64,000 nt of DNA. Origin: Thalia democratica. Taxonomy: Eukaryota. The position numbers and the translations under genes are program-made. The stretch covers positions 70,804,001-70,868,000 of the forward strand of contig OZ241830.1 of the NCBI GenBank assembly GCA_965202585.1, read 5' to 3'. Shown one piece after another: positions 1 through 38,769 of this stretch; the first letter of the stretch is position 1, and the number at the start of each line of letters is the position of its first letter. The notes beneath the pieces were generated by a model, which had not been told where the DNA came from, ran no database searches, and saw only the letters and a program-made list of their open reading frames with translations.

Positions 1-3000
1 AATGTGCAGTTACTTTTGTTCTTACCTTTGTTTTATTTTTATTTGCATTCATTATTATTTTTATATCTTTCTCAGGTTTTATTGTATGTTTTTAAAAACT
101 TTGTTTCTTGTGTTAACAATATATCAATTGTTGTCGGAGATACGTTGTAAATTAAGTTTTGTTTTTATTTGTACATCTTAAAGCCATTTTTTTTTTTTTT
201 TTTTGTACCAGTCCATGATTTTAGATACTCTAAAGTTTGAATTTAAATTCTGAAACTAATTAATATTCTGAAATTTTGAGGTTTTCAATCTCATTAAATA
301 TTGAGGTCATACCTGTGATAATTCAGTGATTAGTTTGTTGTGCTTTCTAAAGATTTTTTGGTGTTAAATTGTTTTCTAAGTTTTTAATATATTTAATTTC
401 TACCATCATATAATGAGCAGATGTTAAAAGTACAAAAGTAACATACAAAGTTTCATATTTATACTGTGGTTTCTAGTATTATAAGCTGGATATTTATTAC
501 AAATTATGAATATTTGTATTAATTAATCCATATATTATACTCTAAATCAAGTTCAACAATTTTATGGAACTGACTCAGAATAACAATGTTGTTTTATGTC
601 GTTGCTATGGTTTTCTTGAACTAATCTTGTTTGTTCGTTGTATCGTCGCCTGTTAAAATTCCCTGTCTAAAACATTTTTTTTGTGTTATTTAGTTGTTGC
701 ATTGGTTTTTTTCCTAAAGTATACCAAGTTTAAATACACTGTTAAAGAGAGTTTGTAACCGTTTAGATTTCAGTTTACTTTGTGTTTGCTAAAAAGTTTA
801 ATTGAACCACTGACATCAGCTGAGTAACTTTTTAAAGTAAGTATAAACGTTGTAATTGTTCAAACTGTTACTTTTTAATCTTTCAAAAATACGTAGAATA
901 TCTCATTTGATTGAGGCTAATACTCAATACGCTCGATATACTTTTTACAATGTGTTGTGAATATTAGTAAATAATTGTGAATATTAGCCAATGGACCATA
1001 ACTTTTTATTTTTTTTATTTACAATAAAAGTTTCTTTAAACTAATTTTTATAAACTTGCCTTAGCTTTATTTTCAGTGCTTCGAAAATAATTATTTTATC
1101 ATTAAAATTAAACTTAGATCTTAATTTGAATTCATTGTATATACCACTTTTTTGTGCAATTTTTTTAATAAATCCAAAAAAGAGAATTTCTTGTAAACCG
1201 TGTCCAGTATACAAAATTAAGAAAACATAGATACTATCAATAGTATCTAGCTAGTATTAATACTAAAAAAATACAAGTTTTCCAACATTTGTAGATATAG
1301 TTGACATATGTATAGCCTGAAAACTGTGCTACAAACTATAAAAATACGACAGTTAATAAAAACCTCATTTAGACTGTTAAGTACTGTTAAGTAAGGTTGC
1401 CATATTAAAAAAAAATCTTTTTGTATGTACTTTGAGTACGTTTGCTTTTAGATGAGTTAAAAGTTTATACTTAAAAGAATACTTAAAAGTTTTGACTTGT
1501 TGCCTATGTAAAGCTTTATATAAAAATAATAGTCGAGCTTTAGTCTCGACTATTATTTTAATTATTTTAATAGTCTATTTATTCTTGTTAAAAGTTACTT
1601 TCTTTTTTGTTGAAACTTTTTTTGTTTGAACCTTTAGCAAAATTGTACTTATTTCCGATAGGAAGAGCTAGTTCTTACGAATTTTAGGACTTCGTGAAAC
1701 AATGTGAACAGTCTAAAAGCCATTCAGTTTTCTATAACTGCAATTGTACTACACCTGATGAGTTTGTAATTCAACAGTTTCTGTTTATATAATATACTCC
1801 TATTAGTTTTTATAAGGTTAAGAGTCACTTATAAGTTTTAAATGATAGTTTTTATGAGTAACTAACAAGTAAATGTTTTTACATTTAAGCAAACTATAAA
1901 TATAGCTGTTAAAAATAGTTTTTAAATTATGAATTATAGTTCAAAATATTTTTACATCAACAGCTGACTTAAAATAGCAGTTTTTAAATGATTACAATAT
2001 ACTTTAAGAGGCTTACCCTGTTTTCCATTTGATTTAATTCTTATTTTAAATCAGTATTTAGTTTATATTTGTTTAAAGTTTAAATTTTCAATATTATAAG
2101 TGTTCACACCGGCACGATTTTTGATAGAGATTAACTGTTTTTTGAATTTATATTCTGTAAGCTATTATAAAAATAAGCTTATAAACAATAAAACAACTTT
2201 GTTATTATGTTAAATATCATGTAAAGGTTAAAACATTGTAAATAAATATTGTAGTTTAACAAATTTTATCAAATTCAACTCGTGATCTCGGATTATATTC
2301 AGTATATTGATTTGCTTTTTTTCTTTTAGGCATATGTATCAACTTAGCTTGATGTACTCCGGGCTACTTGGGTCTATAGCTTTATTTGAAACCACCTCTG
2401 TAACAGGTTCGGCAGTTTCGGCAGGAGCAAGACTCGCAACAGCTTCGGGGCTATCTTTAGTTGCTACCTCGATCTAAAACCGCGTGCGAGAGGGTTTAAG
2501 AGCTAATAGCCTCTTCATTTTACTTATAAGATAAATTTAAGTATAGACTAAGAAGTAGCTATATGATTTAGTATACAATAAAATAAAAGAAATATTAAGA
2601 AATGTTTACTACTTTAGAAGGCTTCTTGCAGTTCGCGATTCTAGTTGTGCTGTAACAAATGGTTGCTAGTACAGTTTACTGGTTCAGAACCTAAGGACTT
2701 ATACTTCCTCGTTGACACCGGATGAAGAGCGCGCGAGGTAAAAAGATACAATATTGAAATAAAGTAAAGAAATATAGATGTAATAAGTTTAAGCCACCGA
2801 ATGTGGGGGTTATACGTAGAGTTCAATGTTCAAATCGACCCAATCTGGAATTTGTTTCTGGAGGACAGCTTGTCTGCTACAGTATGCGTAAACTTATGAG
2901 AATGGCACGCTAACAACTCAAATCGCCCTGTCGACGTTGCTAAAGTAGGTATACAAAATGTGTATAGAACATTATATAAAAACTACGAAGTTATGAAGTA

Positions 3001-6000
3001 AAATACAAAGTAAATGTTTTAAACAAACAAGTACTTGAATAAGAAGGTTTTGCCGGAGATCATCTAGATTTTTCAAAATGGCAGCTTACGCTCAAAGCGT
3101 CAAGAGAGGTTTTGCTGGGGATCAGCTAGATTTTCCAAGATGCCAAATGATGTGAAGTTGCTTTCTTCTTGACATGAAGTAGGTGAGACTTGCTATCTCA
3201 TTCATTCGGCTGCTTATGTACACCTCGATTGCATAACAGTTCCGCATGATCAAGGCATGGTACTAACTATAACATGCTGGTTGAAGCAGGTTGAATGAAC
3301 ATGCTGGTTGAATAAGATTTTCAGGTCGATGTCCAACATCGACTTAATTAAAATTATTATTTTTGTTTTTTAATGAGTAAGTTTTTGAAAGCAAACAAGT
3401 AGTATCCTACCTTTCAAAAATTCGTTCTATTCTATCTATAGAATTTAAAATTTAAAGTTAATTTCGATATTAATAGAAGAGTATTATTTATGGTTAAAAA
3501 ATTCAGAAAATAAACTTATAATTATAAATATAATGTTTAATAAAAACCTTAAGTTAAACGAAATATGAGATGCCCCATAATCAAGTATCACGAAGTATAC
3601 TTGAAATTTAATTTAAATTACAAACGAGATTCATTAATATCGCTCGTTTAAGCACATTTTTTTTATAAATATAAACTAATCATTACAAATACAAAGTTTA
3701 ATTTAGACCTCAAGTTAAACATATTATGAGAAGCTCAACAATCAAACATCACAAAATATGTTTAAAATTTGAATTAAATTACAAACGAGATTCATTAAAT
3801 TGCTTTAAGAAAATGCTTCATAATTCTTCATAATTCTCAATCATAATTTATACAATTTATGTTGATGCTTACTATTGTTTGTAGTACACCATGGAAGCAC
3901 ACTTAATGTTATTAATTATAAGTTTTTCAGAACTCAATATTCACTTGCACATGTTTATACAATATTAACTTAATGAAATATTATTTAAAATATTTGTATA
4001 TACATAATATTAGTGACTTACTTTAAATTATAAGCAGTAATTCTTGAGTCACATAGCACTATTTTTCATTGGGCTTTTATCTAGAGGATGTTTACAAATG
4101 AAAAAAACATTTGGTACAGTTTAGCACAAAGTAATTTTTTTTAATGAAACTTCAGCAAAAAACAGGGTCAAGTTTTACCAATTTTCATTTTCAGCTTGTT
4201 AAGTTAGTAAAGCTTTGTTAAAATATTTTTAGTAATAGATAAAAGTTCAGTTCGAATCATAATAAAAAAAAACAACTAACAAGTAATAATTTCAGTTGTA
4301 TTACAAATGCTTGTAGACCAAAGAGGTTTTAGACCTAAATTTTCTTTTTTTTTGCGATCGTTTTGAGATCGTTTTTGCGATTATATTTTTTCGAAAATAA
4401 GTGGTACTCAGTACATTTAGTTTAAAGCTTCTGTTAAAATTTCGTTATAATTTAAGTTACACATGTAGAACCTTTTCGTTTTAATACTTAGCATTAATTC
4501 CTTACACTATTATTTGTTTCTGCAAAAAAGTACAATTTTTAAACTAAGCAAATTTTATTGTTGCTTATGATTTAACACTTAGTTACTAGTTTGCTCATTT
4601 TTGTAATATACGACAATTAAACAGATTTGTTTTTTATTTTTAGGATTAACAAAAACGATTTGAAAATTCACTTAACATCACTTTTTGAAAACCATCCAGA
4701 TATTTTGTATACATGTAACGAAATTTTACCTCCAGATTGCTATATTGAGGTTAGTGAAAATTATAGATATATTAGAGTAAAACGTTAAACAAAAATTATT
4801 ATACAGTTCAAACTTAACTTACCTTATAGAGAAAGTTTTTTTGTACTATGAGCTGATTAAAATAAATTAATACAACTTTGTCAAACTATGTTTTTAAAAT
4901 TAGTAACTATTAAAGTGTATCATGAGATTACATATTGTACTTGAAATATTTTAATGCTTTTACTGAAACTGTTTTATGTTAGCATTGTTTATATATTTTG
5001 TACTCTTACATTATAACATAATTTTAATTAACAGTATAAGAGAAGAAGAAGAAAACTGCACTTTTTAACAAAGTCGTCAGAAAATTTCAGTTTCCTTTTT
5101 ATTTTGCTTGTGATTTCAACTTTTAGTCATATAACTTTTTTTTATAGTAGTAACACTTATGTGTTTAACTTATTAGTTATTTTTTACACTATAAATATTT
5201 TAAGTGCTAATTTTTGTACAAAATTTGCATAGTTTTGTACGTTTGTAGTAAACTTCATAAGTTTTACTAAAATATTAGGTACAACAACTATAAATTTTTT
5301 TGAGCATTTTTTAAACATAAGATTACATTGTTTATGAATTAGAATTTTATTTAATAGTACACTTTGTATTTTTAAATGAAATGATTGTTCTACATTTCAT
5401 TAGTTATGCATTTTAATTAAGAAATGGCTTTATTTGATTGTTTTTTAACTCACAAAATGTATTAAGCAACATTTTTACACATATAAATACTAGTAAAACA
5501 AACGGCTGCGTCACCTTGACATAATAATGAAGTACTAGTTTCTTTTATAGAATAACATATAGTTTTTCTTGAAACATTACTTTTGTTGGCGTCTGTTTGC
5601 CGGTTTGTTTTAAAATATTAGGGGGCAAACAGCGATACTACTTCACGCTGTGATTAAACCGTATTTATACGTTATTAGAATACTTCTATTTGCTTCTATT
5701 GAATATGTTAGCTTTTGTATAACTTTGTTTGTTGTTGTTAAGTAACTTTTTTTCATACTGCCCATACATCGTTAATTAACTACTTCCGAAAGTAAAAATT
5801 TTTCTATTTATGTATAACCGCATATATGAGAGTTAATTTAAAATACAAGTTAAAAAAAAAGCAACAATATAAAATAATACCTACTGTGCTAACTGTAGTA
5901 AATAACTAATTAAATTGAGCAACCGCATTAAGTTACTTAAGAATTTCAAGTTTATCAAAGTGTTGTCTGCAACATAACGGTGTCCACAACTAACACATAA

Positions 6001-6568
6001 AAGTTGTCCTCTACACTAGAAATCTATAACTATCACATCATAGTAGATCGCAGAATCTATGAATAGGCTTCTAGTTTATTTAGTGCTTGGCATACCAATT
6101 GTTGTACTACAAAACCCACTATATTTCTAAAATAATTAAAGACTTTCGTAAAAGATATGGATATTGAAGTAAAAAGGTAATTTTTAGACTGCATTTCCAA
6201 TTGTATTTGAACTTCTGTATAAAAACTACTAAGTTTTGTTATAAAAAAAAAGTTAGAAGTTTGTAAGTTTGTAAGTTAAGAAAAAAAAATATTAAAATTA
6301 AACATATTTAATATAACGAAAAGTTTATAGACAATGTTTAAAAGTAACAAATAAAGCTTGCTTAATTTACCTTCACTACTTATAACGACCTGATAACTAA
6401 TTGTAACAAAGAAAGTTCAAATAAAGTTTTAATAAAAAGGTTTAATTCTTGCTTTTATAACTAACCTAAGGAATGTTAACGACTTGAAAGAGATGCTTGA
6501 TCTCAGTTGTCCATAACATTGTAAAGTCTCAAACTATCACTTAAAAGTTGTCTGCAACATTAAGTATC

Positions 6569-6718
6569 TACAACTACCACATTACAGTAGATCGCAACAA
6601 TACAACTATCACATAGCTTAAAGATCGTAGTAGTACAACTTTTACATCATAGGAGATCGCAATGAGACAATTACGACATCAGTAGATTGCAATGATACAA
6701 TTACTTTACACAGTAGAA
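6569..6718. repeat. Degenerate 30-33-bp minisatellite (related copy about 6025-6055)
   Basis: About five units of TACAACTA.CACAT..AG(T)AGATCGCAA. Confidence 0.65.
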
Positions 6719-6953
6719 ATGACTAGCACTTCTTTGAGTATTTTTACTTTTATATATGTGTCTGCTAAATACAGTCGATCTTAGCCATTATTAAGGCACC
6801 TTTGGAAAACCAAGACTCTTAGTAATTCTTTTTAGCGATTTTATATTAAAACTCTAAAAAATAACAATGTTATTTCTTAAAGTTTTCGTCTAATAATCTG
6901 AATCAACACTTAAATAATGTACTTACAATCTCAAAATAAAATTTGAAGTAAAT

Positions 6954-7808
6954 TTAGTAGCTCCAGTGGCCCTTCATCTCCCATTCGTTTGCGCCGCAAG
7001 AAACAACGCCGTGCACAACATCGTACCGATTATCCGCTGGAAGTCGCTTCTCGCAAGCCACCGGGCCTCCCGAGTCGCCCGAAGTGTTGCCACTGCACTC
7101 ACCCGGATTTTCAACTTCAATACTGCAGTGAGCGAACATGTTATCAAATGTCCTTTGAACAGTCAAACGATCTTTAACTTGTAAAATGTCTGGAGTCTCC
7201 CCTCTTTCGTTTATATCACCCCAGCCGGAAATTTTGCAAGACCACCCGACCTGCGGCTCGTTTCTGAAAATCAGTATGGCGGGCCGTATATTTTCTATAG
7301 GTTCATCGTAAAGTTTATTTCTGAGAAGCACCAAGCCGATATCGTACCTGTTAGCACTTAACTTTACAGGCTCCGAGTGGTGGTTTTCGTGCAAGTAAAA
7401 ATTTTCCGAGACGACAGTTCTGCGGGTGGGATCCTGTTGATTCACTTCATTGTATATGGTGCCTGCAGTAACTGCAATTCTCAGTATTTCAACTTTGTAG
7501 CTGGCTGAGTCTCTATTGAAACAGTGCGCCGCTGTCATAACCCACCGACTGTTCAGCAGAGATCCACCGCAGAAATGTCGAAACTTGTTAGCATCTAAAC
7601 GATTAGGCGAGCGAATGACGTCTTCTTGATAATAATAATATTCAGGGTCATCATTTAGGTTGAGTGTTTCTGCGTATTCGAGAAACTTCAAGGACACTTG
7701 GTAAGGAACTTCTCCCACATTTGCGTTGCGCCCGTTCTTTACTTGCCCGTTTACAAGGCACGAGCAAGTTAATAAAAACAAAAAACTCAATCTGATCTTC
7801 CAATCCAT
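6954..7808 (-). pseudogene. 3'-truncated paralog of the S1A serine protease
   Basis: About 98% identical to 35665-36520 with an intact His/Asp/Ser triad. Homology ends abruptly at 6960 (KGHWSY* versus KGHWSRPCKAVKSVDYVGWMEEKM), removing the C-terminal helix and domain 2. Confidence 0.8.
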
Positions 7809-8560
7809 AAGTAATGAGTGCCAGGTAAATTTTATCAAATCAAACAAAAATGTTTTTTTATGTTTTAAAATATCTTGTGCTACGTGATAATTGGTTTATT
7901 TAGATTAGAGCTACAAAAAGTTATAAAAATTGTAGTCAATGTTGATTTTTAAGTAAACGATAAAAGAGAAATCTAAAGCTTATACTTTTTAGTCCTTTGG
8001 TAAGTAGACTCTACTAGCTTTTACATTTTAAACTGGCATAAACTCACACGTCATTTCACCATTTCGATCATGACATCTGTATAGTGACATTTCATTGTTT
8101 TTAACTTAGCGTCTAACAAAAATTTTGAATAAATTTTGTTTTATTATTTAAATATACAATGATGTTGCCTGAGCTAAAATCAATCAGCTGTTTTACAGTG
8201 AAATTTCAATTTTTATAGATCATTATAAAATTAAACATAAAGCTTTTATAAGTTTATCAAATAAGTTCATCAAAATGTACTAAAAAAAAAAAAATCTTAT
8301 ACTAAAGATTAAGTCGAAATATCAGTTAAGTATTTTATAAGTCTTTTATGCTTATATTGTTTTCTGAGCTACTTGGGTTTTATGTGAAAACGCCTCTGTA
8401 ACAGGTTCGGCAGTCTCGTCAGGAGCCAGATTTGTTTTAGCTTCGGAACAATCTTGATTTTTAGTTGATCCCTCGGTTTGCGACTGACTGCGAGATGGTT
8501 TAAGAGTTAAAACCATTTTCATTTTGTTTGAAAATTAAAATAAAACATGTACTAACAAGT

Positions 8561-9954
8561 TAGTTTTAAAACGTTTTTTATTTCCAGTGTCCAAGATAAT
8601 GAGAACTTGTTTGTTCAGATAGTAAATAATAATAAATAAGTATAACAAAATTATTGAAAAAAATACAATATTGCTTCTACTGTCTTGAAAATGAACAAAT
8701 AACACGCTTTCGATTCACAAGTACTTTCATTAAAACATTATCAAGCGATAAACGGCTGAAATTATAAAAACACAACTATTAGTAACTAATTTATAAAGTA
8801 AACAAAATTTAAATAAAAGTTCATAGTTAAACTTTTAAGCTATATAAATTTATAAACATTTCATATTATCAAACAATTAATTATCATATAAAATTTTAAA
8901 AACTAGGATTCTACTAACTAGCTTTTAAGTCTTCCAAGTAGCTCTTAGAATCTTTACAATATTCATTAGGTCTAAATTGGCAGTATTTTCTACTTACAGG
9001 ATCTAAAAGTAAATTTAACATAGCAGTTATTTTGCAAAGGTAGGAATTTCCATCTGCCTGGACTATTCTGACAGGAATATCATTGATAGCACATGCTTTC
9101 AGCTGCTCTCGTGACAGCTTATGTGTTTTCCAGAGCGGATACATATAGCCGCAGTTCATGTTTGAAAAAAACTTTGCTTTACTGCCTGTGGCTTTTCTAA
9201 AAATACCAAGTTTTGTTCTTGTTATTACTGTGGTTTTATATAGCATATTTTCATCAATGATGTTGTTTTCACACAGACTCATTACAATTTCGTTCTTTTT
9301 TTTATTCTTATTTATTATTTCCCTAACCTTTGGTTTATTTTGTGTAGTTCTGTTCTAGACCACCAGTTATCATCTTTATGTAATCATCGTAATCAGTTAT
9401 AATAGTTTTACCTTCTTTATCAGAATAGCCTACCACTATATCTTTATTTTGTGATTTTAATTTTTTCATAGATGTTAGTTGGTTTTTATTCAGGTTATTC
9501 CTCCTTATGTACTTTAGTATCACATTATTTTTTAAGTTTCTAAACTTATTTAATCACAACTTATAAATATTTTATATTTTAGAACTTAGTATTTTAGGAT
9601 TTTTAGGAAAAGAGCATTTTGGTAAATTGTTTTTTGGCATTTACTTGTATGCATTTATGAGTTGTTAGTTAATAGAATCTTAGTTTTTAAAATTTTGTAT
9701 GGTAAATAAATTTTTGATAATATGAAGTGTTTATAAATTTATATAGCCTAAAAGCTTAAGTTTTAACTTTTATTTAAATTTTGTTTACTTTTTAAACTAG
9801 TTACTATTAATTGTGTTTTTATAATTTCAGCCGTTTATCGCTTGATAATGTTTTAATGAAAGTACTAGTGAATCAAAAGCGTGTTATTTGTTCATTTTCA
9901 AGACAGTAGAAGCAATATTGTATTTTTTACAATAATTTTGTTGTACTAACAAGT
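8561..9954 (-). mobile_element. Penelope-like retroelement fragment with inverted terminal duplication and 13-bp flanking direct repeat
   Basis: ORFs 9335-9523 (NLNKNQLTSMKKLKSQNKDIVVGYSDKEGKTIITDYDDY) and 8914-9282 (YPLWKTHK..IPVRIV..CKDSKSYLEDL) resemble the PLE RT N-terminus. Inverted repeats lie at about 8641-8918 and 9664-9941. TGTACTAACAAGT occurs at 8548-8560 and 9942-9954. The empty site is at 37288-37300. Confidence 0.75.
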
Positions 9955-12900
9955 ACTAATACACTTTGTTTAACAGTAAAATAAAATAAAAACTGAAATC
10001 GTTTGGCAATTTTAAATTTATCTACTTTAAGAGGTTTCTCTCAGTTCACCAGTTGTGTTGCAACGGATGGAAGATACAACTTACTGATTCAGGACGTGGT
10101 GGCCACTCATGCTTCCTCGTTGGTACCGGATGTGGAGCGCGCGATATAAGTATTCAAATGTTTGTTATAAGTATTGTTCATCTCCTTTTATAAGTTGATT
10201 TAAAGTTAAAAACATTTTTGAAACAAACATTTAAACTCCAGTGTACTCAAATTTGTTAACAGTTTTAACAACTATAATTTAACTATTTTATCTCATTTAA
10301 ATGGGTAGCTGTCAATTTTGCAAGAGCGTACAAAATTGCATGACGGGGCAAAATTGCACGAAGATACTTTTGCCCGAAGACACTTTTGCATGAGGGTGTA
10401 ACCTATGGATATAGGTATCTTTAATATTCTTAACCTATACTAAATAATGATACTAATAATACTTAGGGTTACTCTATATAAAACTAGGCATGACAATTAA
10501 TGAACATGTTGTATTAAAGAACAATTGCGAACTCTTAGAAAAATATAAATAATATCATACTTAAGAACTATTGTTTATTGAACGACAAAAAAAAAACGCT
10601 CAAAAGGTTTGGTCCGAGCACCTGGTGTATAAAAAGACTTTCAGTTATCGAATCATATACCAGAACAGTTTAACGTCATGCCCAGGACAATGTTTAACGT
10701 CATGCTCTAACTTTCAACTGTAGTCCTCCAGGGGCTGTGGTAGGAACTACCTTTAATTGGGGAAAGTCCCCTTTTTTGTGCTAAACGCTTAGCGCGTTTA
10801 GCTCTTAAGGGTTTTACTGAATTTACCTTACTCATTAGGTTTAACTTAGTAATTAATAAGTATGTAATAACGTTAATATAAATAATTTCTTTAATGAAGT
10901 GAGTTTATTGAATATGTGATATTAATGTGAATAAAAGTAGAATTAGAAGTGATAAAGCAGCTAGTAAATCAGTTGAATAAAACTGCAAATATAAACACAA
11001 CAAGTAAACACAAAGTTCTATAAACAGAAATGTTCTTAAAGTGTTTTAGGTCTTAAATACAAAAATAGTTCTTACTAATAAAAGTACTAATAATACAGAG
11101 AGATATATCAGTTTTATAAACCCATGTAAAAACTATTTACAACTATACGTACTTGTTTGTAACTGTAGTTACTGTTTTTACCTTTATAACTCAAAAGTTG
11201 ATTAAGATTCCCTGTAACAACAAAATATCAATAGCTATTTATTTTCAGTGTGAACAAAAGAGTAGCGTTTGAAACGATTGCTGGTATTTTGAAAGGTTGT
11301 GTTGCTCTTACCCATCGACTCTACAGATTGCTTACACCTCTGGTTGGTTTTAATATGTAATAAGAGTGTAACTATTCTCATAAATGATTTGTTTAAAAAC
11401 AATTGCAACAAAAAAAACATTCTGTATTGTTTATAAGATAACATAATTATTAAAGCTGTATAAGTGAAGCAGTGTTTGAGTATTAAAAATCTCAAATTTA
11501 AACAAATATAAGCTTAATACTGTGCAATGTAACTGTACTTTACAGTTATGTATACTGAATTTAACTGTATTTTGTTTTTATTCACTAAAATTAGTGTTAT
11601 TATAACAGTTGAAGAAATATTCAGACGATAAAAAAAGTTAATCGAACAATACAGCTATTTTTTTATGTAAATATATTAATAATAAAATATATTTTAACAT
11701 GTAGTTAAATAAATACTTAAAAACAAAATTATCATAGTCAATGTAATTTCTTCAAAGTTGTTTTTTTTTATAAATTGATAATATATTACTGAATGTTTAA
11801 ACATTAAAATGAAAACATTATAAAGAAAAAAAATGTAAATGATCAAAACACGCTTATGTAATTTCAAAATATTTAACCAAAAAACATTAACAAATTTCAG
11901 CAAAAATAAATGTTTTTAACGAAACAAGTGAAGATAAAGTTTAAGGAGAACCCTGTAATATCCAGAATTTTCATAAATACTATGCAGGCTTATCTAATAC
12001 TCAGGTACTTATGTTGTATGATGAAGTTTATACAAGCTGTTGAAAGAATTAAATAACATTGACTTATATATTATTTGTTTGATAAATACTCAAAATTCGT
12101 TTTCGGCAGAACAATTAGTTTGCAGGCCTTTTAAGTTTTTAAATGTAAACAACAGAAATGCAACTTTAATCTTAACTTTAATTATATCCTCATCAAAAAA
12201 TTACTTTAAATTCAGTTCGCATTATAATTAAAAAACAACTAACATTTAATAATTTCAGTTGTTTAACAAACGCTTGTGGGTTGAAGTAGTATTTTTTAAG
12301 AAATAGGAGTTTTATTTATTTTCTTGCGATCGTTTGTGACTTTAATTTTTCAATTTTAATTGTTACTCAGTATTTTTAGTTTTAAGTTTCAATTCTTTAT
12401 AATTTTGGTTACACATGTAGAACCTTTTCTTTTAAATACTTGCATTAATTCTTCACATTATTATTTGTTTCTGCAAACAATTTTTATGGTTATGTAGGGC
12501 TTATATATTAACTTTAACTTAGTTTAAAAAAAATAATATTTTATGAAAAACAATGAGAAAGAAACTGCGGACCTCTAGTTTGTAACACAGAAATAACAAA
12601 AATGCAAGTTTATTGTAAATGTAGCTACCTATCAAATCAAGTAATTTTAACTCAGGTATCATGTACCTTAAAGTTTTTCTTCTTAGTAAGACGTTTATTT
12701 TTGTTCATGTTTAGAATAAACTATTTTGATAATAATAATGGACCTATTTTTTAACACGTAAAAAAAATATTAACTCTTTGTCATTAAAATATTAATAATA
12801 CAATCTATAAATCTATTATTTTACTTTAAAACAACTTGAAGTCTAAAGAATCCTGTAGATCACTAGTTTATATTTCAATTTTTGTATCAAGCAATCGTGC

Positions 12901-13941
12901 TGACTTTACCTGCTGATTTTCTTTTAACGATGATCCACGAAAATAGGTACAAATAAAAAGTTTGCATATTTGTGTTAATAATCAGCTCTTTACGACTGGT
13001 GAGTTGAGCAATATTTTAGTGTCACTTTAAACAAATTTAAGTTTTAAAAAACTTTAAAACTAAAAAATTAATTGCCATATTTTTATATGCTATATTTCAG
13101 GTCAAAATATTTATTTTTATTCGGTGAAAAATGCGTACTCAACTCAAAGTGCGTACGTGAGCGGAAGATGGCTTGTTCGAATGCTCAGTGTTAGGAAATT
13201 TCTGAACTTTAACCAGGTAAAAATATTATTGAATGTTTATATTATCAGTGCTTTGGACTTTACGAGTTTTAATAAAATTTTAATTTGTTTTAATATTTAA
13301 ATCTCAAGAACTTTCTGAACTTTAAGAAAATTCATATATGTTTCAATGTTTAAATACTTAATATAAATATTCTAAACTTATTTAAAATATAAACATGTTT
13401 AAACGTTTAATATTTTGAACTTTCTAAACTTTAATCATTAAAAAACTGTCGTTGTGTGTACGTTAAATATTTTCATAATAAAAATTCTGACTAAACAAGT
13501 ACAATTAGATTATTAACAACAATGATTTATGTGAAAGAAAAGTTATCAAATTATATAAACAACAATTTTTTTTTATGTTATAGTTTCATGAATAAATATA
13601 CTAGCTTTAATATTCAGACATCTGTAAGGAAAAGTATAAAAATCTAAAAAGTTATGCTTTCTCAAAGGGTACATTATTTATAAAACAAAATTCTAAATCT
13701 CTAAATTAAGTAACTGAAATTTATCAAATGTTTTCATTCAAAATATAGCTTAAAAATAAGTTATTACAGACATCTAACTTTTAACTCTGATACTTTCGTT
13801 TGTAACTTGATATAAAAACATTTTTATTGTTATTCAAATGGCGTCTTTAAACATATACCACAAAGTTAACACTAGTTGACTTTATTATTTGGTAGTTAAT
13901 TTATTTACTCTGAAAAGTTTTCTTTCAAGTCTGCATAGGAA

Positions 13942-14288
13942 CTATTCTTCGTCATAATCGCTCATAATTTCATCGATCCACTCACTGCTCGCTTCCGAAC
14001 CAAAAGCTTCATCCGCGAGGTTAGTGAAAACTTTCGGTCCCGCGCCTCCCGCCACGCGTTCCCAGNNNNNNNNNNNNNNNNNNNNNNNNNNNNNNNNNNN
14101 NNNNNNNNNNNNNNNNNNNNNNNNNNNNNNNNNNNNNNNNNNNNNNNNNNNNNNNNNNNNNNNNNGCCCCGACGCTGAACGTCGGCTTGTCGCCTTGCTG
14201 CCTGGCGCAAATGTGCGCTCGCAGTCGCAACATTTTCCTCGTGCCTCGGCTTGATCATCGGAAACGTGCATTCTGCGTACATGTTCAT
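13942..14288 (-). pseudogene. C-terminal exon of the inactive trypsin-like domain, copy 1 (interrupted by N gap)
   Basis: Near-identical to 42653-42969 on both sides of the gap. Confidence 0.65.
14066..14165. other. Assembly gap (100 N) inside the C-terminal protease exon
   Basis: Run of N; the collinear sequence in copy 2 is 70 bp (42777-42846). Confidence 0.98.
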
Positions 14289-15128: not shown

Positions 15129-15182
15129 CTGTTGAGTGCAATTGTTGTAAACACATATTTCTGTATTTAAATTGATATTTAA

Positions 15183-24672: not shown

Positions 24673-24963
24673 CAGGGTTGCCAAAAAACCTAGAACTTGT
24701 GAAATTTTGAAAAAACTTTGAATTTTTAACAACTTTTACATGTTAAGTAGTAGAATCTTGGTTTGACGCGAATAATCTATCAAATGTATAAATACTTTTT
24801 GTCATCATATTTTTTTTATTTAAAAATACATTTAAAGTAGCTTCATAGTAATGTTGTTATGCTGTTTAACACAGTTTTTTTACCTTAAACTTAACTTTTA
24901 ACTAAATATAGAACAATGAACGTGTAATTTGAAAAACCTAGAAGAAACCCAGGGGCAACCCTG
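24673..24963. mobile_element. MITE with CAGGGTTGCC termini (copy at 57928-58208)
   Basis: 10-bp TIR CAGGGTTGCC..GGCAACCCTG; flanks ATCATT/ATCATA. Superfamily not assigned. Confidence 0.7.
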
Positions 24964-27900: not shown

Positions 27901-30900
27901 TTATTACCGATATAAAATTCAAATGAATCCCTAAATCTAGTTTTTAAATGTATGCAACATACTTGTTGTAACGAATTGCTTACCTTACAAATTCATTAGA
28001 GATTTTAGTTTTAAATGACCCAACTTTTAATAAGCATTCTGCGTTCAATTGACAATGGTCTTACGGCAACTCTAGTTCCTAAATTTGTCAATCTTTACGT
28101 TATTCAATTATTTCAATTTAAATAAATATTGGTTTAGCATAGAGATTTGAATTAAGATTCATTAAATATATTTATTCTCAACAAAACTAAATTTAGATAC
28201 AATTTCGTATTTTTAGTTGTTATAACATTGTTTTGTTCGTATTATTGTGATGTTAACTAAAATTTTCTTTCTATGGTTTCTTTTTAATCAATCTAATATA
28301 TATATCTATATATTTTGTTTTATTCTCCTATTATTCTCAGAACATACTGATTTTTAAATTAAAATTTGCTCTTAGTATTTTATCATTAACTGTCATCTTG
28401 TCGCGCTGGTTTATATAAATATTTCCAGATTAATTCTTTAAACAACATTTAACTTAAACTTACAGATAATAATTACAGCTCGAATATACTTCTTACATAA
28501 AAGCTTTGTGATTTTTTAGTCTTAGTTTCACGACCTGTAAAACTTATTAAGTCTTCTACCTCCAAACATTATATGTGTCTCTAAATTTAAAAATTAAACA
28601 ACAGACAACTTAACTTATGTTTTTATTATAATCAAGGCCAGTTCAAAAACCATTTTAATTTTGGGGTCTCGTTTAGTTATTGTTTACAGTAATTTTGATA
28701 ACTCCATATAGAGCCATTTTTTTTTGTATTTCATACATAGTGGTCTTGTCTGAGTTGTATTTTTGGAAAATTTTCAATAAAATGAAAAACATTAAAAATA
28801 AGTACTACATTTTGAGTCTTATTAAATCTAAACTGTTTGGTTTAACAATGCCTCAATATTTCATACATGTTTCAATAACTAAAACATTTAACCAAATACT
28901 ATGTTATAACTTATTGCCCATCTTTTCTTAACGATTCTGATCATTTATACTTCTTCTCCATATATCACCAAAATAAAACTCAATGAAATAAGGCAAATTA
29001 ATTCTCGTTTCAAATGTCTGCGAGTTTTCCGAATGTAACTACTTCGTTGTAGCATTCATTGTACTCAATGTAGTTTTTTCTAATGTTATGGGATCGTTTT
29101 CCATTGGATAAGTATTGGCTTAAAGTTCAACAAAACTTGAAATTAGTTGAAAAATGTGTACTAATGATTTCTTTCCTCTTAACAAAATTACATCATATTT
29201 TAGTTAATAATTCATTGATGCTACTGTAGAATTTTTTAAAATTGTAAAAGTGTAAAAACATGTTTGTATGGTTTTTTATGAAATTATTCTAATGTCTTAA
29301 TTTATAAGTCTAATTTGTTATTATGCTTCAAATTTCTTATTTCATAAATTAATTCTATTAATAACTAAAGTTAGATCCAGTTTTATACTTTTAGTTAACA
29401 CTTTATTGTTTTTTTGATATTAAAGTAAAGTTATTTTAAGGTTTACTTAAAAATAATCTATGTGTTCTTTTTAATAAATGTTATTTGTGTATAAGTCTAT
29501 TTTGTTGTTATATTCTGTTTTTTTTTGTTTGTCTGTTTAGTTCTATTTCTTACCCAATAAGTAAAGACTAAATATAGTTGTATATATTTATATTTAAAGT
29601 GTACTTTGCATGTTTTGGAAATCTTATAGGGTCGTTAAAGGTAGCATATTTATTTATAAGTGAATAAAACTCTTGGATTAACTTAAATACATGTTTCAAT
29701 CTTAACGACATTAAATTGTATCCAGTTTCGTATTGTTAGGTAACTTATGATTTCTTATGACTGTCAAGTTATTTTATTTTTTGTTAAACCTTAACTTTGA
29801 GCGTTTGTTATTGAGAGTTAATGCTGTTTCGTATTTAGTTCTACTAGCAGCCCAAAACTAAGCATAATTTTTTTTTTAACATATAGGTTTAAACTAAAAG
29901 TAAAGCTTAATGTTTTATAGTATATATCCATGGTGTTGTACTATGAATGATGTAGTTTTATAGTAGACAACCTTGGTATTATTCTATAAGTAACACAACA
30001 GTTTTGCATTGTAGTTTAGTTTATCAGTATTTATTGTAATTCAAATAGTTAAACTATTTTATGGTATTTATTTTATTTATTTAATTAGTAGTTATGGTAC
30101 TAAGTCTCATAAGTATCAAATAAAATTTTTGTTTAGTATTTAACTATCTTGTAGAATGTTTGTTTATAAAAGTCAGTTAAAAGATGTTCACGTCACTATT
30201 TCAGTTTAATTTCAATTAAACATACTACGTGTTATTTATTTTCCTTAAAATTTATAAACAACCACATGGATTTATTTGACAATAAAAGCAAAGTTTCAAC
30301 GATTCAACAGTTTTAAATAGTTGTTGTAATTAAATTTGTTATAATTATTCTTTTGTAATCGACTTTAGATGCTATTTTTTTTAAGTACGATAATATGTCG
30401 TATAAGTAGCAAATGATAAGACAAAAGAAAATAACTAAAGTAACTGCTATTACAACTATATCGTCTATTTATAAAAGTTTAAGTACACTTATAATACTCC
30501 TCTTAATTGTTCTTAGTTTTCATAAGATTAAGAGTCATTTTTGAGTTTTAAACTCAACCTATAGTTTTATAAGTTTTTATATATTTGAGCTATCAAAAAC
30601 TTTAGCTGTAAAAAAAGCGTTCTAAAATTACGGATAATCAAAAATAGATTGACTTAAATTAATAGTTTATCAATGATAATAGAATACTTTATGAATTTGT
30701 TTAATAGACTGACCCTGTTTTCAATTTATTTCAATTCTTATTTTAAATCAATATTTTTTGATAATTATATAAGTTTTCAATAATATAAGTGTTTAAGGTC
30801 TAATTGATATTATTTAAAGATAGGCCTCACATTAAACTATTGAATAAATTTAATTAAATATAATGAGTATAACAAAAATAGCAAGCTATACATACAAACT

Positions 30901-31023
30901 ATACTAAGTACTGTTTATTGTAAATTGAAGTTATTGAAACCTGTGGTAAACAACAAAAAAGAACGTACTCTTTTAATTATTTTGGTATTTATCTAAGAAC
31001 AAAGTAGTTTTATAGTCTTATAA

Positions 31024-31322
31024 CAGGGGTCAGCACTCATATGTAACTCGCGGGCCTAGGAAAAATTGCTAACGGACCGCACTACTTAGAAACAAACCTT
31101 TGATGGCCGCATCTATTTAAATAAAGTTCTGGTAATATTAGAAAAATATTATTAAAATCAAAAATATGATAAATTGACCAATATTAAAGCATAAATAAAG
31201 AAATAAGAGCCTAACTGTAAGTTTTTACTTCAAAATATTGTTTTTTAAAAATATACTTTGGTTGAAAAGAAGCTCGCGGGCCGCATATTTTGACTTCGAG
31301 GGCCGCAGTTTGCCGACCCTTC
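31024..31322. mobile_element. hAT-family MITE
   Basis: Termini CAGGGGTCAGCA..TTTGCCGACCCTTC with a perfect 8-bp TSD TCTTATAA (31016-31023, 31323-31330). Confidence 0.85.
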
Positions 31323-31640
31323 TCTTATAAAATTATCTTATAGCTTAATGGATATTAAACTTAGTATTCTCAAGTGTTTAACGTTTTAGATCACATCCTC
31401 GAAAAAAGTTATTACTATATTGATAGCTTTACCTTGTTTCATTTGTGATAGCAGTTTAGACTTATACTTTTAAATTTTTACTTTAACTATTAGAACTTTA
31501 GATAACTCATACTTTCATATGATTCAATAATACTTGCTTAGAAATACATAATTCAAAATTGTTTTTAAAAAAAGTAAAATTTAACTCAATTTAACCTTTT
31601 TAACATTTATATAGTAGATATATTCATAACTATCAAAAGA

Positions 31641-31709
31641 GCAATGGCGTAGAGGTGAGTGTCGGGGCACGCGCAACAAATAACCTGAGTTCAAGTCCGC
31701 GCAGTGGCA
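31641..31709 (+). ncRNA. tRNA-like Pol III cassette type 1 (copies 33960-34027, 60826-60894, 63157-63225)
   Basis: A box TGGCGTAGRGG, B box GAGTTCAAGTCC at tRNA spacing, T-run within about 10 nt downstream. Acceptor and T stems do not pair, so it is not a canonical tRNA. Confidence 0.5.
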
Positions 31710-32492
31710 TTTTATTCTACATAGAGATTCACTGTTTTTTTTTTAATTGATATTCTATTAGCTATTATAAAATGAGGTTATAAGCAATGCAATAATTTTG
31801 TTTTATTGATTTAAGATTATGTAAATGTAAACAAATATTGTATTTCAACAAACTATAGCGAATTAAACTCGTGATTTCGGAGTATATCCAGTGTATTTAC
31901 TTGCTTATTTCCTTTAGGCATTTGTCTTAGCTGAGCTGGCTTATACGAATGAATATAATTCAAACAAAATATTATTATCAAGCTATAAAAATTCATCTAA
32001 TAGCAGTCAAACGGTCTAAATCAATATTTATTTTACCTAAAAATAGAATCTAAAGCTTAAGGTAGTAGTGAAAAAATAAGTTTTAATTTTTAAAACACAA
32101 CATGCATTTTAATATTAAGATACTTTATAAGAAATACAAAAATTTTACATAGACAACCTTTTTCATTTTATAATATTGTATACTTATTTGTCTATTAGAT
32201 TAGTTTATAAAATATCCCAGCGCATGTAACTCTTTAGTTTTTAATTAAAAAACTCTGTTACAAATTTGTTTTTACTTTCAATGTTAATTTGAACATTAAA
32301 CAAACATATTAGCGTGAACACATCTCTAATGTTGGATTTCTAACATTAAAATTAAAGTATAAGTTATATTTTAAAAACTGAAAGTCCTCCAATTAATTGG
32401 ACACGCTTTGTTCTGACCCTAGCACATTAATTCCAACTTTGTACTCCTTTCTCATAAGAAAATATATGTTTCAAATCAAGTTTAACCGACAA

Positions 32493-32564
32493 GCAGTGAT
32501 GGCCCGGTGGTCAAGGCGGTGGAATGGAAATCAAGACTTTGCGTTTTCGAACCCGACATGTGCC
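32493..32564 (+). pseudogene. tRNA-Ser-derived cassette (copies 34778-34847, 61696-61767, 63979-64000 partial)
   Basis: GCAGTGATGGCCCGGTGGTCAAGGCGGTGGA-ATGGAAA-TC(C/A)AG resembles eukaryotic tRNA-Ser(TGA). Loop reads GGA, variable arm is lost, TTCGAACC T-loop is present, acceptor stem only 3/7 paired, poly-T follows. Confidence 0.6.
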
Positions 32565-34900
32565 AGTTTTTTTGTTTCTAACCTGTCAGTTCAAAATTAT
32601 TTGCAAGATGCTCTACTATGTTTATGTATAAATAGCACTTTCGAAAATTTAAAAATAATTGTTCAATGGCTAATTATAATAAACAAAATAAAAAACTAAT
32701 AAAATCTAAACGTGCCTTTTAGGCTAGTTGCTTATTTTTGAAGTTTTTGTTTTATACTCTATTGTTTTTACTTTAATTTACAAGTTATATATAAATAAAG
32801 TTAAACTTTTTATGGTAGTCAGTTTTTTTTTTCCCAAAGTAACATGTTCACTCTTTTTTCTTTTCAAAAAACTTAAATAATATATATTTCTTTAGTCAGC
32901 CTATAGCCAGAAAAAAAAATAGCGTTAAAATTTTCACGAGTTTAACAATTCCTAGTTTTATTTTAATAATCTTTATTAATAATTAAACACCTAATTAAGC
33001 ACCCTTTTGAGAAAAAATTAGAGATTTATGATGATTTTGTAACTGTTTATCTTATTTATAACAAGACAAACTAAATAAACTAATAAAAATTGTTTTTGAA
33101 ACTAATACTTTATAAATAGACAATATTTTGTTTTTGTGCGTTATTGAGTTTAATTAATACAAGTATTGCATCAAATATGTGTTTATATTTTAATTTAGAG
33201 ATTTAAGACGACATTTGCTACTTTTAAAATATCTGAGATTTCTTTTTTTGTAAAATAATACCAAAATTTTTAGAGTACATACTTTCCTTGAGGAGCACTT
33301 TAAAATTTTGTTCAACGTGCGTTTTCAAGGGGAATACTTCTCTGCATAGTAAGTTTTGTTTGATAAAATATAATTTGAACGTCTGGAAAATATCTAACAT
33401 ATTTTAAGTAAATATAATAAGTACTAAAAATAATAAAACTATAAAACTAGTTAAAATAAATTGAATAAATGTTATTATTCTGTACCTTAATTTAAATCAA
33501 ATAAAACTAGATCAATACTTATTTTTTTTAAATCTAGCCAATATTTGTTTATTAAAAAAATATACTACCTACAGTTATCATAAAAAAGCTACTTTCGAAT
33601 AAATTTTTCATTGCGTTGCTGTTGACTGCCGTAAAATTCAATGAAAGCTAATTATCAGTATTAAGATCCTTCAACAGCTCAATAGTTTCCTGGTCGTATA
33701 TATTTTGTTCATCAAGTTAAAGTTATTACTTTATTGATAGCAGAATTTTATTTCATTTGTAACAGCAGTTTAGACTTATACTTTTTAGTTTTTACTTAAG
33801 CTATTAGAACTTTAAATACATACTTTCATATGATTCAATAATGTTAGCTTACAAATACATAGTTGAAAAATATTATTGAAACTTAGAATAAAGTAAAATT
33901 TAACTCAAGTAACTTGTTTAGTATTTTATATAGTATATATACTCGATTTACCCAAACGAGCAATGGCGTAGGGGTGGGTGTCGGCGGGCGCGCAGCGAAA
34001 AACCTGAGTTCAAGTCCGCGCAGTGGCTTGTTTTTCTAGAAAGAGGTTCACTACTTTTTTAATTGATATTCTATTAGCTTATTAAAAATTTTTTTATGAT
34101 TTAAGATTATTTAAATGTAAACAAACATTGTAGTTTAATATACTATACCGAATTAAACCCGTTATTTCGTCTCGGAGTATATCCAGTATAATGAATTGCT
34201 TATTTTCTTTAGGCATTTATCTTAGCTTAGCTGGCTTATACGAATGATTATAATTAAAAAAAAATATTATTATCAAGCTATAAAAATTCATATAACAGCA
34301 GTCTAAATCAATATTTATTTTACCTAAAAACAGAATCTAAAAATCAAAGTATTAGTAAAAAGATAAGTTTTAATTTTAAAAGTAAACAACATGCATATTG
34401 ATATTAAGATACTTTATAAAAAATACAAAAATATTACATAGATAACCTTTTTTATTTTATAATATTATATACTTATTTGTCTATTAGGTTGGTGTTTAAA
34501 ATATCTCAGCGCATGTAACCCTTTAGTTTTTAACAAAAAACTCTGTTAAAAATTTGTTTTTACTTTCAATGTTAATTTGAACCTTAAACTAACATATTAG
34601 CGTGAATCATCTCTAATGTTGTATTTGTAACATTAAAATTATAGTATAAATAATACTTTAAAAACAGAAAGTCCTCAAATTAAATGTACACGCTTTGTTC
34701 TGACCCTAGCACATAAATTCCGACTTTGTACTCCTTTTTCATAACAATATATATTTCAAATCAAGTTTAACCGACAAGCAGTGATGGCCCAGTGGTCAAG
34801 GCGGTGGAATGGAAATCCAGACCTTGAGTGTTCGAACCTGACATGTGTTTTTTTTTTGTTTCTAACCTGTCAGTTCAAAATTATTTGCGAGATTCTACTA

Positions 34901-35195
34901 CAGGGTTTCCCAAACTTTTTTGCTAATGGCCCCCTTTAAAGAGTTTGAAAAAGTAATGGCCCCCTTCAACATATAGATTGCTCATAAACTACAATAAAAT
35001 ACACATAAGACCTTTTTTTTTTGCTCTTCATCTGCAACTCAAGAATATCTAGTGTAAGTTTCAAGTTATGGTCTCATGGCCCCCCTGTGGCTCCTTTACT
35101 GCTCATGGCCCCCCTCTTCCCCTTTGCTGCTCATGGCCCCCTGAGTATCTGTCATGGCCCCTAGGGGGCCACTTGGCCCACTTTGGGAAACCCTG
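34901..35195. mobile_element. hAT-family (Charlie-like) MITE at the junction between AT-rich backbone and protease exon
   Basis: Perfect 14-bp TIR CAGGGTTTCCCAAA..TTTGGGAAACCCTG with internal ATGGCCCC repeats. The flanks TTCTACTA and GTCTATGC do not match. Confidence 0.8.
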
Positions 35196-35347
35196 GTCTA
35201 TGCTGTCATCATTCGGCCTATTCAGTTCGTACTTATAATGTTGAAAAGTTGTTGTGAACCTATTACTTTTGTTGCTCTCAGTTGGTTTCGATCGTTATAA
35301 CGGCCACCGGCCTTGACAACTAAACCTTCCATGAGTAACGGTCGCTC
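35196..35347 (-). pseudogene. Disabled continuation of the second (pseudo-protease) domain beyond the TAA
   Basis: Reading through the TAA gives ERPLLMEGLVVKAGGRYNDRNQLRATKVI, which parallels domain-1 IAVTAGTIYNE..RRTVV. Two 1-nt shifts then give VHNNF and QHYKYELNRPNDDSID before the hAT MITE at 35195. Confidence 0.6.
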
Positions 35348-36520: not shown

Positions 36521-38769
36521 AAGTAATGAGTGCCAGGTTAATTTTATCAAATCAAACAAAAATGTTTGTTATGTTTTAAAATATCTTGTGCTACGTAATA
36601 ACTGGTTTATTTAGATTTAGATTATCGCTACAAAAAGTTATAAATTTTCAATGTCGATTTTTCAGTAAGCGATAAAAGAGAAATATGAAGCTAATAATTT
36701 TTAACTATACTTTTTAGTCTTTCAGCATGGAAACAATATTGAGCTTAGTACATTATTCTACTAATTTTTACATTTTAAACTGGAATAAACGCACACATCA
36801 TTTCACCATTTCAATCATGACATCTGTATAGTGACATTTCATTGTTTTTAACATAGCGTCTAACAAAAAATAAGTTTTGTTTTATTATTTAAATATACAA
36901 TGATGTTGCCTGGGCTAAAATCACTCAGCTGTTTTACAGTGAAATTTAAATTTTTATAAATCATTTTAAAAATTAAACTTAAAGCTTTTATAAGTTTATC
37001 TTATAAGTTCATCAAAATGTACAAAAAAGTGTAAGTTCTTTTTCTAATAATTAGGTCAAAATTTCAATTAAGTAATTTTTAAGTCGTAAATGCTTACATT
37101 GTTTTCTGAGTTACTTGGGTTTTATGTGAAAACGCTTCTGTAACAGGTACGGTAGTCTCGTCAGGAGCCAGATTATTATTAGCTTTGGAGCAATCTGATC
37201 TTAAATTAATCCCTCGGTTTGCGACTGACTGCTAAATGGTTTAAGAGCTAAAACCATTTTTATTTTGTTTAGAAATAAAAATAAACATGTACTGCAAAGT
37301 ACTAATATACTTTCTTCCACAGTAAAATAAGAATCACAACTGAAATCGTTTGGCAATTATTTCAAATTTATCTACTTTAAGAGGTTTCACTCAGTTCACG
37401 ACTCCAGTTGTGTTGCAACGGATGGAAGATACAACTTACTGGTTCAGGACGTGGTGGCCACTCATGCTTCCTCGTTGGTACCGGATGTGGAGCGCGCGAT
37501 ATAAGTATTCAAATGTTTGCTGTAAGTATTGTTCATCTCCTTTTATAAGTTGATTTAAAGTTAAAAACATTTTTGAGATTTTATGTTACTTACAAGTTTT
37601 TAAGTACATTTTTATACACAGAATTGAGTTATTTTTCATTAAGTTTTTTTTTTTTATTTCGTTTAACTAATTTTTTTATCACTAAAGTTTAAAATATTTA
37701 AATGATAAAAATTAAAATATAATAGCTCGTAAGAAACTTTAGTAGCATGTGGTGCACGACTCGATAACCGAAAGGTTCCTTTGTACACCAGACCCTTTGA
37801 CCAAACTTTTTGATCGCTTTTGTTTATCGTTCAACAAAAATATATAAGTAGTTGAAATTCACAAATGATAGCTAGAAACGTTAAGTTTGTACCACCAAAT
37901 GCGTGGGCTTATTCTGCAGAAGTAAATGTTCAAATTAACTTGATCAAGTAGTTGTCGCAGGAGATTCAGCTGAGTTGGTGCCACCGTACACGTTGGCTTA
38001 TGATGCAAAGGTCAATGTTTAAGTTGATACAGATGAACATTAAAATTTGTATAGAATGAGATACAAAAACTGCAAAGTTAAAAAGAAAAGTATAAAGGAA
38101 AAAGTAAATGTTTGAAACAAAGCAAAGGAAAAATTGAATAAGAATTTTTTGCCGGAGAATCAGCTAGCTTTGCAAAATGACGGCTTACGTTTAAAGCGCT
38201 ATATTCTTTTCGTGTGTCATAAAAGTTAAATAGTTTTTATGCAACGATCAGCTCTAATTAATATTATTTGCTCGATGCAACATTTTTGAAATCGAGATTT
38301 TTATGTTTAAAGAGTTTTTGATCTAATACTGTTTTGAAACGATATTATGTAGATACTTTACATTTTGACAATCTAAGCTTGGAAAGACTATTTTTGTCTA
38401 TGTTTAAGTTTGGAAAGACTTTTTTTCTGCAATCACCTTCATCTGGTTGTATATTCTTTTATTATTGTGTTTAAATATTTAATATATAAAAAACAGTCAA
38501 GCGAAATAGACTTGTTTAAGTTTTGGTAACTCAACTATTTGTTGTAAACATACTGGTACATACATCAACTAGGACAAAAATAGTGATTTTGTAATTTAAA
38601 GTACCTTGAACATTAGATTCTTCTACTAATTCTATAACTTAGTTCTATTTATAAACTTAAATTATTTTTTTTGTTAACTTAGAAAATATACTTAAATTTT
38701 GATGTATTTCAATTTAATTAAAGTCTTTACAGTTTTAGTATAACTATTTTATTCTCATTTAGTTATATA

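Follow-up and report, generated by a model that had tools for sequence, protein, structure and literature searches.

A non-coding element with a conserved, hairpin-rich core is likely to multiply host genes in tandem arrays of the Thalia democratica genome

The 64,000-nucleotide stretch of Thalia democratica DNA analysed here (contig OZ241830.1; C6:70804001-70868000, hereafter the window; genome 802 Mb, ~26% GC) carries a dispersed element, 13-21 kb long and with no recognised enzyme gene, which is likely to multiply host genes in a way that matches none of the transposon classes tested. The element lies between direct copies of local host DNA, its ends vary, a non-coding core is conserved and amplification is local. 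Our preferred reading, to which we give a probability of roughly 0.6, is that this non-coding element with its hairpin-rich 4.5-kb core arrives between host copies by replicative template switching and is then amplified together with the host segment into arrays of ~29-kb units. A preliminary description of the window, made from its letters alone, had already recognised a dispersed multi-kb backbone, amplified head-to-tail. The backbone lies next to different genes at different loci, and the ~29-kb repeat was recovered by self-BLAST (offsets 28.7-29.8 kb, 91-97% identity). The description had taken the backbone for a giant transposon or a decayed virus; we found no sign of a virus or of any known class of giant transposon.

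Eleven loci were read on both sides. At ten of them the element is flanked by direct copies of the local host DNA, 3-14 kb long, in the order host-(element-host)n, and a clean insertion with a short target-site duplication (TSD) was seen at none of the eleven. Host copies of 8.6 kb with IFT140-like exons (94% identical) enclose an element of 20.1 kb at C6:60.7, copies of 13.5 kb (98%) enclose one of 17.8 kb at C6:78.0, and both ends of the C9 array (47914207-48244891; element 21.0 kb) lie in a 10.3-kb calpain segment (98%). The host copies measure at least 13 kb at C6:66.2-66.35 (94%), ~12 kb at C6:67.5-67.95, at least 8.7 kb at C6:63.5 (97%), ~4 kb at C6:13.45 (92-95%) and ~2.9 kb at C7:59.79 (85-90%), and those at C1:26.4 are patchy (80-94%). 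At the window locus the host copy at 70683132-70692783 recurs at 70741578-70753752, the rest being inverted and rearranged. The C4 and C8 arrays were read at the left edge only, which on C4 begins in inter-element DNA; their right ends and the array ends at C5:6, C5:69.7, C1:13.1 and C6:77.1 were left out. The host segments keep their introns, that is, separate exons, and the process is therefore DNA-based.

Other repeats were noted at these arrays. A 40-kb array of a 2217-bp unit (C6:70696873-70736775, >99% identical) lies between the two host copies at the window locus, and a 201-bp satellite in inverted blocks (C6:70777606-70792139) forms the centre of the inversion that splits the window array into two arms. 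The kelch array is bracketed at C6:67.49 and 67.96 Mb by inverted repeats of >10 kb that hold a protein kinase encoded in a single open reading frame (ORF).

The junctions between element and host are sharp and mutually unlike, and the outer ends are unique to their loci. No terminal repeats, terminal inverted repeats (TIRs) or short target duplications were present at the junctions aligned (six loci), and the termini and TSDs that the preliminary description had hoped to define from aligned flanks did not emerge there. Candidate conserved ends, at 18648 or 17990 on the left and at 34796 or 3809 on the right, each turned out to be a subfamily break. One left end is common to C6:60.7 and C1:26.5, and many right ends lie near a minisatellite. 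Serial short templated repeats were found at the C6:70741550 junction, pieces of ~170-200 bp resembling nearby DNA at both C6:78 ends, and overlaps of a few bases (microhomology) at other junctions. The C6:78 junction lies, without mismatch, inside an exact 152-nt short-read contig in two runs of one sample. Contig depth, which does not give copy number, was 37 and 47 at this junction against 99 and 124 on the host segment (~2.7x deeper), and the C6:78.0 insertion is perhaps heterozygous. A 9.8-kb contig of run X5 begins on the host segment precisely at this junction and lacks an element side; its depth of 5 is too weak for calling an empty allele. At C1:13130400-13134300 a terminal minisatellite of ~157 bp, in two head-to-head blocks, joins inverted element copies.

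When 18 locus groups were compared, the block at 18648-23100 was common to 15-17 of the 17 others and the right arm to ~5-14; the DNA between element copies was common to none of the other groups. A 20-mer and a 28-mer from the core had 182 and 246 exact matches, respectively, and their reversed controls none. The core copies lie mostly in head-to-tail arrays, and the first 100 of the 182 core sites (C1-C8) fall into 17 clusters. Of the gaps below 150 kb between those sites (n=83; median 28.8 kb), 66 measure 18-36 kb, 6 are shorter and 11 longer. In a tree of copies those of the window group with other C6 arrays and most array mates fall together, the copies being sisters or one clade in five of the arrays sampled more than once; its long branches stem from truncated or interrupted left arms, and we place no reading on them.

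The core block contains short direct repeats (22347-22515), a 23-bp GC hairpin (22625-22647), a 105-bp imperfect palindrome (22926-23030) and, in most copies, a further hairpin of ~52 bp. At single copies the hairpins are internal, lying 5-7 kb and 9-16 kb from the ends. Hairpin pairs are kept to 94%, and 12 pairs have changed on both sides (0/500 shuffles). The long hairpin is flipped in 4 of the 100 listed copies, all from one array, and the short one in a single copy. AT skew is ~0 to the left of the core and -0.07 to -0.15 to its right at all 10 loci measured. On the minus strand, 10 copies share no open frame of at least 45 aa apart from a captured exon, and the sole Rfam match, the histone stem-loop, was rejected as sub-threshold (E 0.79). 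The hairpins also prompted the idea of a miRNA cluster, which we do not favour. Sub-arrays of the hairpin or the core alone, with periods of 5.5 kb and 4.4 kb, were observed inside larger arrays (C4:84446640-84468755 and C8:6047902-6056695).

The captured exon is the first coding exon of a cyclin gene, which many element copies hold to the left of the core (81 matches). Its parent is a multi-exon gene at C8:11994596-12005277, which we take to be Cyclin K-like, and which has only ~390 bp in common with the window. The exon is a true capture, if a small one. The idea that the backbone itself is a spliced gene was rejected, this exon being its sole coding piece. Around the intact gene cluster ~7 cyclin (Cyclin K-like) paralogues (C8:11.74-12.04 Mb, with C8:33.32 Mb), and a diverged core copy (78-80%) lies 21 kb upstream of it; the cluster is possibly an old amplification by the same element.

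Coding cargo had been claimed for the backbone, and while this holds for the cyclin exon, it fails for the protease. The genes found between backbone copies belong to the local host DNA and were duplicated in situ. Close copies of the protease (at least 93%) occur only at C6:70.69-70.87 Mb or on unplaced contigs, and all are shorter than the single-ORF paralogues of 570-670 aa elsewhere. Its lack of introns is no sign of capture because the family is single-ORF throughout the genome. This large family of two-domain trypsin-like proteases (C2:75.2-75.5 Mb; C6:8.3-8.5 and 19.4-20.0 Mb; 570-670 aa) has named relatives of at most ~31-34% identity. Kelch, calpain, kinase, PARP and Deltex families are likewise single-ORF in this genome.

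From 178 ORFs of at least 85 aa in the repeat units, 133 passed a GC filter, and 70 of these were scanned together with 9 others (79 in all), as were 23 further, longer ORFs. The matches were host genes (BACK-kelch, calpain, kinase, PARP, RING, TPR, Utp14, RRM, IFT140), one FLYWCH finger (C4 unit only) and one sub-threshold GIY-YIG, every one of them confined to a single locus. The 79 + 23 ORFs contained no mobility gene common to the units, though spliced or decayed genes could escape such a scan; the search for hallmark genes that the preliminary description had called for yielded no Rep/helicase, recombinase, transposase, PolB, integrase or capsid family. Its statement that the window has no transposase, helicase, integrase or capsid ORF agrees with the scan of 6 of the 9 window ORFs; the other 3, which span N runs, show no recognisable gene of this kind.

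The cargo model had been built on five module pairs, which self-BLAST recovered at about the places claimed (E-values 7e-9 to 3e-38): 1803-2104 with 30513-30793 (66%), 2124-2349 with 31721-31937 (76%), 2363-2556 with 8368-8560 (72%), 2381-2736 with 37121-37499 (67%), 2605-2736 with 10017-10144 (71%) and 2955-3099 with 38042-38198 (75%). Their identity, put at 75-80%, measures 66-76%. The junction at 2345, where ~5 kb of cargo seemed to part two adjoining modules, is the edge of an ordinary gypsy-type long terminal repeat (LTR). The right-hand modules are thus not backbone: 2350-3338 is an independent LTR, found solo or on intact elements, an outcome that the description itself had set against its model. 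Two LTRs that happen to coincide give the impression of a 5-kb cargo, since 2350-3516 and 37093-38200 are separate LTR copies, the latter older (68%); 31937 and 34232 represent the same site without the LTR. The stretch 1-3300 had been called the older relative, yet its LTR is 83% identical to that of an intact element as against 68% for the copy at 37.1 kb. The left part of the supposed cargo (30800-34900) is backbone, 84-94% like the C4 arrays, and the right part is local. The tRNA-Ser cassette is likewise backbone, common to the chromosome-4 arrays, and not cargo; a tRNA-Ser gene was not detected in it (ARAGORN 0; Rfam 0 at gathering), A/B-box-like remnants being visible by eye only, and tRNA genes numbered 0 in the window and in 25/25 loci.

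Positions 1750-3150 gave at least 42 matches (40 of 764 candidates scored), 12 of them beginning at about window position 2350, and the aligned copies delimit an element of 1.1-1.2 kb with sharp ends. One LTR end motif has 99 exact matches, several paired 6.3-6.6 kb apart, and 5/5 such pairs are full elements (7.6 kb) with TG..CA ends and 4-bp target duplications. Clean solo LTRs stand at 4/9 non-array loci, and the paired LTRs are 99.5-100% identical in 3/3 measured. The internal region (5.3 kb) holds one 872-aa or broken ORF with a CHCC-like motif, in which CX2HX9C is present and the last spacing deviates; a protease match was sub-threshold, and no reverse transcriptase (RT) frame of at least 55 aa was found in the one copy examined. 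The passenger at 2350-3516 thus consists of a 3' LTR and a short stretch of internal sequence, and its insertion is confined to one backbone lineage. It resembles CsRn1-clade Ty3/gypsy elements, whose gag motif is CX2HX9CX3C, in LTRs, 4-bp TSD and CHCC-like gag motif, but differs in the last cysteine spacing and, in the copy examined, in having no RT or integrase ORF (PMC2582038). A giant LTR element or large retrotransposon derivative (LARD) was rejected as the identity of the backbone, the LTR being confined to a single lineage (genome-wide, 37 backbone-LTR junctions versus 182 cores); so was an LTR internal region, which would lie between two LTRs with PBS and PPT, since the LTR has its own of 5.3 kb and the host segments keep introns. 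The LTR and the miniature inverted-repeat transposable elements (MITEs) are passengers. The young 7.6-kb family (C2:55077787-55085376 and others), whose ORF starts inside the LTR, is apparently recently active and non-autonomous. In several arrays (window 15179-15798 and 5 other loci) TTAA-ended MITEs with differing flanks are situated no more than a few kb from the left end of the element, which suggests repeated insertion there.

Table 1. Features of the window (positions 1 to 64,000)
Feature	Position	Strand	Basis or relation
Element right arm (backbone), up to LTR insertion edge	1..2349	+	collinear with arrays C6:67.5, C9:48, C5:6
Gypsy-type 3' LTR (2350-3338) plus ~180 bp of 3' internal region; passenger	2350..3516	-	solo and full-length copies
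~160-bp minisatellite at or near element right end	3507..3809	+	common to ~9 other loci; host begins at its edge at C7:59.78
First copy of local host segment, rearranged	3821..17800	.	no match of at least 300 bp and at least 80% at other loci except MITE
Truncated trypsin-like ORF in host copy 1	6954-7895	-	Pfam Trypsin
Older LTR pieces in host copy 1	within 3821..17800		
TTAA-ended MITE in host copy 1	15179-15798		MITE ends
Cyclin gene first coding exon, captured, decayed	18032..18223	-	second copy 47840-48034
Element 4.5-kb conserved non-coding core	18648..23100	+	common to 15-17 of 17 other locus groups
Most conserved block of core	22347..23100	+	direct repeats and hairpins
T-rich right arm, with duplicated 31405-34900 cassette holding tRNA-like remnants	23101..34900	+	84-94% to C4:84-85 Mb arrays
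Empty (LTR-free) site inside right arm	~31937		
Dispersed MITE at element-host junction	34901..35196	.	inverted ends; matches at many unrelated loci
Second copy of local host segment	35196..47600	.	
Truncated trypsin-like ORF in host copy 2	35348-36568	-	Pfam Trypsin
Older 68%-identical LTR in host copy 2	37093-38200		
Next element copy of array	47794..64000	+	runs on to ~C6:70872700

We propose that the element moves as follows. A broken or stalled fork at a new site would take a donor copy as template for ~20 kb that include the core, and the copying strand would rejoin upstream of its departure point, so that the host segment is re-replicated; the joints would be closed by microhomology-type end joining. 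Recombination between direct copies gives array growth and circle pop-out, and here recombination between the two host copies would produce arrays by unequal exchange, while circles of element and host may pop out. Repeats and hairpins like those of the core resemble replicon origins, and from them we infer the least certain step, namely that the core may act in cis as an origin or as a fork-pausing or nicking site and that circles or arrays may become preferred donors. The element would thus spread without an enzyme of its own, at times taking flanking host pieces such as the cyclin exon.

Several published processes share parts of this scheme. In cancer cycles of templated insertions a distant template is likewise inserted, the return lies upstream and a host segment is re-replicated (PMC7025897); these and complex insertions with flanking gains (PMC5120786) are also alike in joint microhomology and templated scraps. 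Such insertions are, however, one-off somatic or clinical events with arbitrary templates, whereas the present core has served repeatedly, in the germ line and at many loci (PMC7025897, PMC5120786). Tandem duplications of ~25 kb that depend on polymerase theta and break-induced replication come near the 28.8-kb median in size and share end-joining scars, and by analogy this class may explain the unit size, but those described are simple, occur in repair mutants and contain no inserted element (PMC13031629). Circles are known to reintegrate in animal germ lines, though rarely (PMC12722694). It is possible, if rather doubtful, that we are dealing with selfish DNA of a new class, a replicon core that has no enzyme, spreads via circles and host repair, makes a multi-kb target duplication at almost every insertion and turns its landing sites into self-expanding ~29-kb gene arrays in an animal germ line.

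A number of points weigh against replicative template switching driven by the core, or narrow its basis. At C6:22.24, the eleventh locus, the surroundings are rearranged and the direct repeat measures only 0.84 kb, and at the C8:6.0 array no host copy beyond 203 bp was present on the left. Some tandem arrays lack the core (2.2-kb and 2.25-kb units), in a comparison that was not genome-wide. The covariation control is inflated by related rows, and the flipped hairpins are single events in single lineages and may have been caused by ordinary quasi-palindrome conversion. The core motif had no matches in viral contigs and none in metagenome contigs. Circles and origin activity of the core are hypothetical, and there was no enzyme among the ORFs scanned. 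Finally, the site list covers the first 100 of 182 core sites (C1-C8), and ~19 loci were read.

The ends and ORFs were compared with those of known transposon classes. TIR (DDE) transposons such as Mutator, hAT and CACTA were not matched at the six loci, which have no TIR or TSD and whose junctions differ; no TIR-class transposase was found in the ORFs scanned, and a partner elsewhere was not searched for genome-wide. In Helitrons and Helentrons both termini are fixed, and a hairpin stands near the 3' one. These classes were rejected: here the hairpins are internal, the ends variable and no Rep/helicase Pfam family occurs in the 79 + 23 ORFs.

The alternative that survives best, although we consider it unlikely, is a non-autonomous DNA transposon, the actual ends of which went unrecognised, its duplications stemming from alternative transposition (Ac reversed-ends, P hybrid-element) or Helitron-like read-through with an enzyme encoded elsewhere. 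P hybrid element insertion leaves the element where the two units of a tandem direct duplication meet. Ac reversed-ends transposition does the same and yields tandem direct duplications (PMC3744419), and the Mutator-type Muntjac of kochia is a ~15-kb mobile element inside the tandem EPSPS gene array (10.1101/2023.05.26.542497). The left end common to C6:60.7 and C1:26.5 and the right ends near the minisatellite would also fit. Yet such systems keep TIRs and short TSDs, which are absent from the junctions aligned, and the outer ends here are locus-unique; save for the FLYWCH finger, no transposase, helicase or recombinase family was seen in the 79 or the longer ORFs. Ac reversed-ends transposition needs transposase-bound ends, leaves 8-bp TSDs and gives as a minority outcome what is the rule here (PMC3744419). 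Muntjac differs in sitting at one locus and in its TIRs, TSDs and Mutator transposase, none of which was found here (10.1101/2023.05.26.542497).

One core common to many duplication blocks with block-specific flanks is the pattern of a core duplicon, and it is the pattern found here. The core of such a duplicon also holds a fast-evolving gene family that is transcribed; in the left arm of our element no ORF is common to the copies. A passive or selected core duplicon, in a genome that duplicates readily and with a core that is a promoter or non-coding RNA gene kept for boosting or expressing its neighbours, is nevertheless improbable. The shift in AT skew at the core (10/10 loci), as for a transcribed strand, speaks for it, as do the conserved hairpins and the amplified genes, which often belong to expanding families (kelch, calpain, kinase, protease). 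The primate core duplicon LCR16a/NPIP is alike as a core of ~20 kb that has moved recurrently as DNA, also between chromosomes, accreting flanks and with no transposase known from that account (PMC7419210). LCR16a, however, encodes a gene family and builds interspersed mosaics, whereas here the core is non-coding, the acceptor site is duplicated and ~200 copies form tandem arrays (PMC7419210). Many host segments are moreover gene fragments (part of IFT140, Utp14, truncated proteases), which are hard to select, the same host-element-host geometry recurs independently, and no Rfam match exceeded threshold. Taken together, the element behaves as core duplicons do and has the appearance of the kochia EPSPS array or the products of Ac reversed-ends transposition, but in its ends, and in the enzymes sought among the ORFs scanned, it departs from all the transposon classes tried.

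A giant transposon or decayed DNA virus ferrying captured coding cargo is largely refuted and very improbable. Its appeal lies in the large, dispersed, head-to-tail copies of fairly narrow unit size (66/83 gaps of 18-36 kb) and in the truly captured cyclin exon, but the genes that separate the copies are local ones, occur on either side of the arrays as well and keep their introns. Polintons/Mavericks have PolB, integrase, capsid and ATPase genes, long TIRs and a 6-bp TSD. They and endogenous DNA viruses were rejected, no viral or transposon hallmark gene being found in the ORFs scanned and no match in viral contigs. False duplication in the assembly is hardly credible: identity reaches 99.9-100% between some neighbouring units and unplaced contigs hold many of the copies, which may put copy numbers off, but duplicated host copies differ by 2-15%, one junction is contained in short-read contigs and the backbone is covered in 30/30 bins in 4/4 sequencing runs. 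The runs that contain window DNA derive from two or three organisms and from marine metagenomes.

We did not find this architecture described in the open-access literature, as far as its accessible parts go, which is no proof of absence. How core duplicons move is a long-open question, the primate events being few, old and tangled. Here ~200 copies at no fewer than 17 loci, with young, clean single events (C6:78.0, flanks 98%) and arrays of every age, make the mechanism directly testable. One cis cause is offered for several unrelated gene-family expansions (kelch, calpain, kinase, protease) over several megabases of one genome. If the reading as an enzyme-free replicon were true, the element would be a built-in gene amplifier across an animal germ line.

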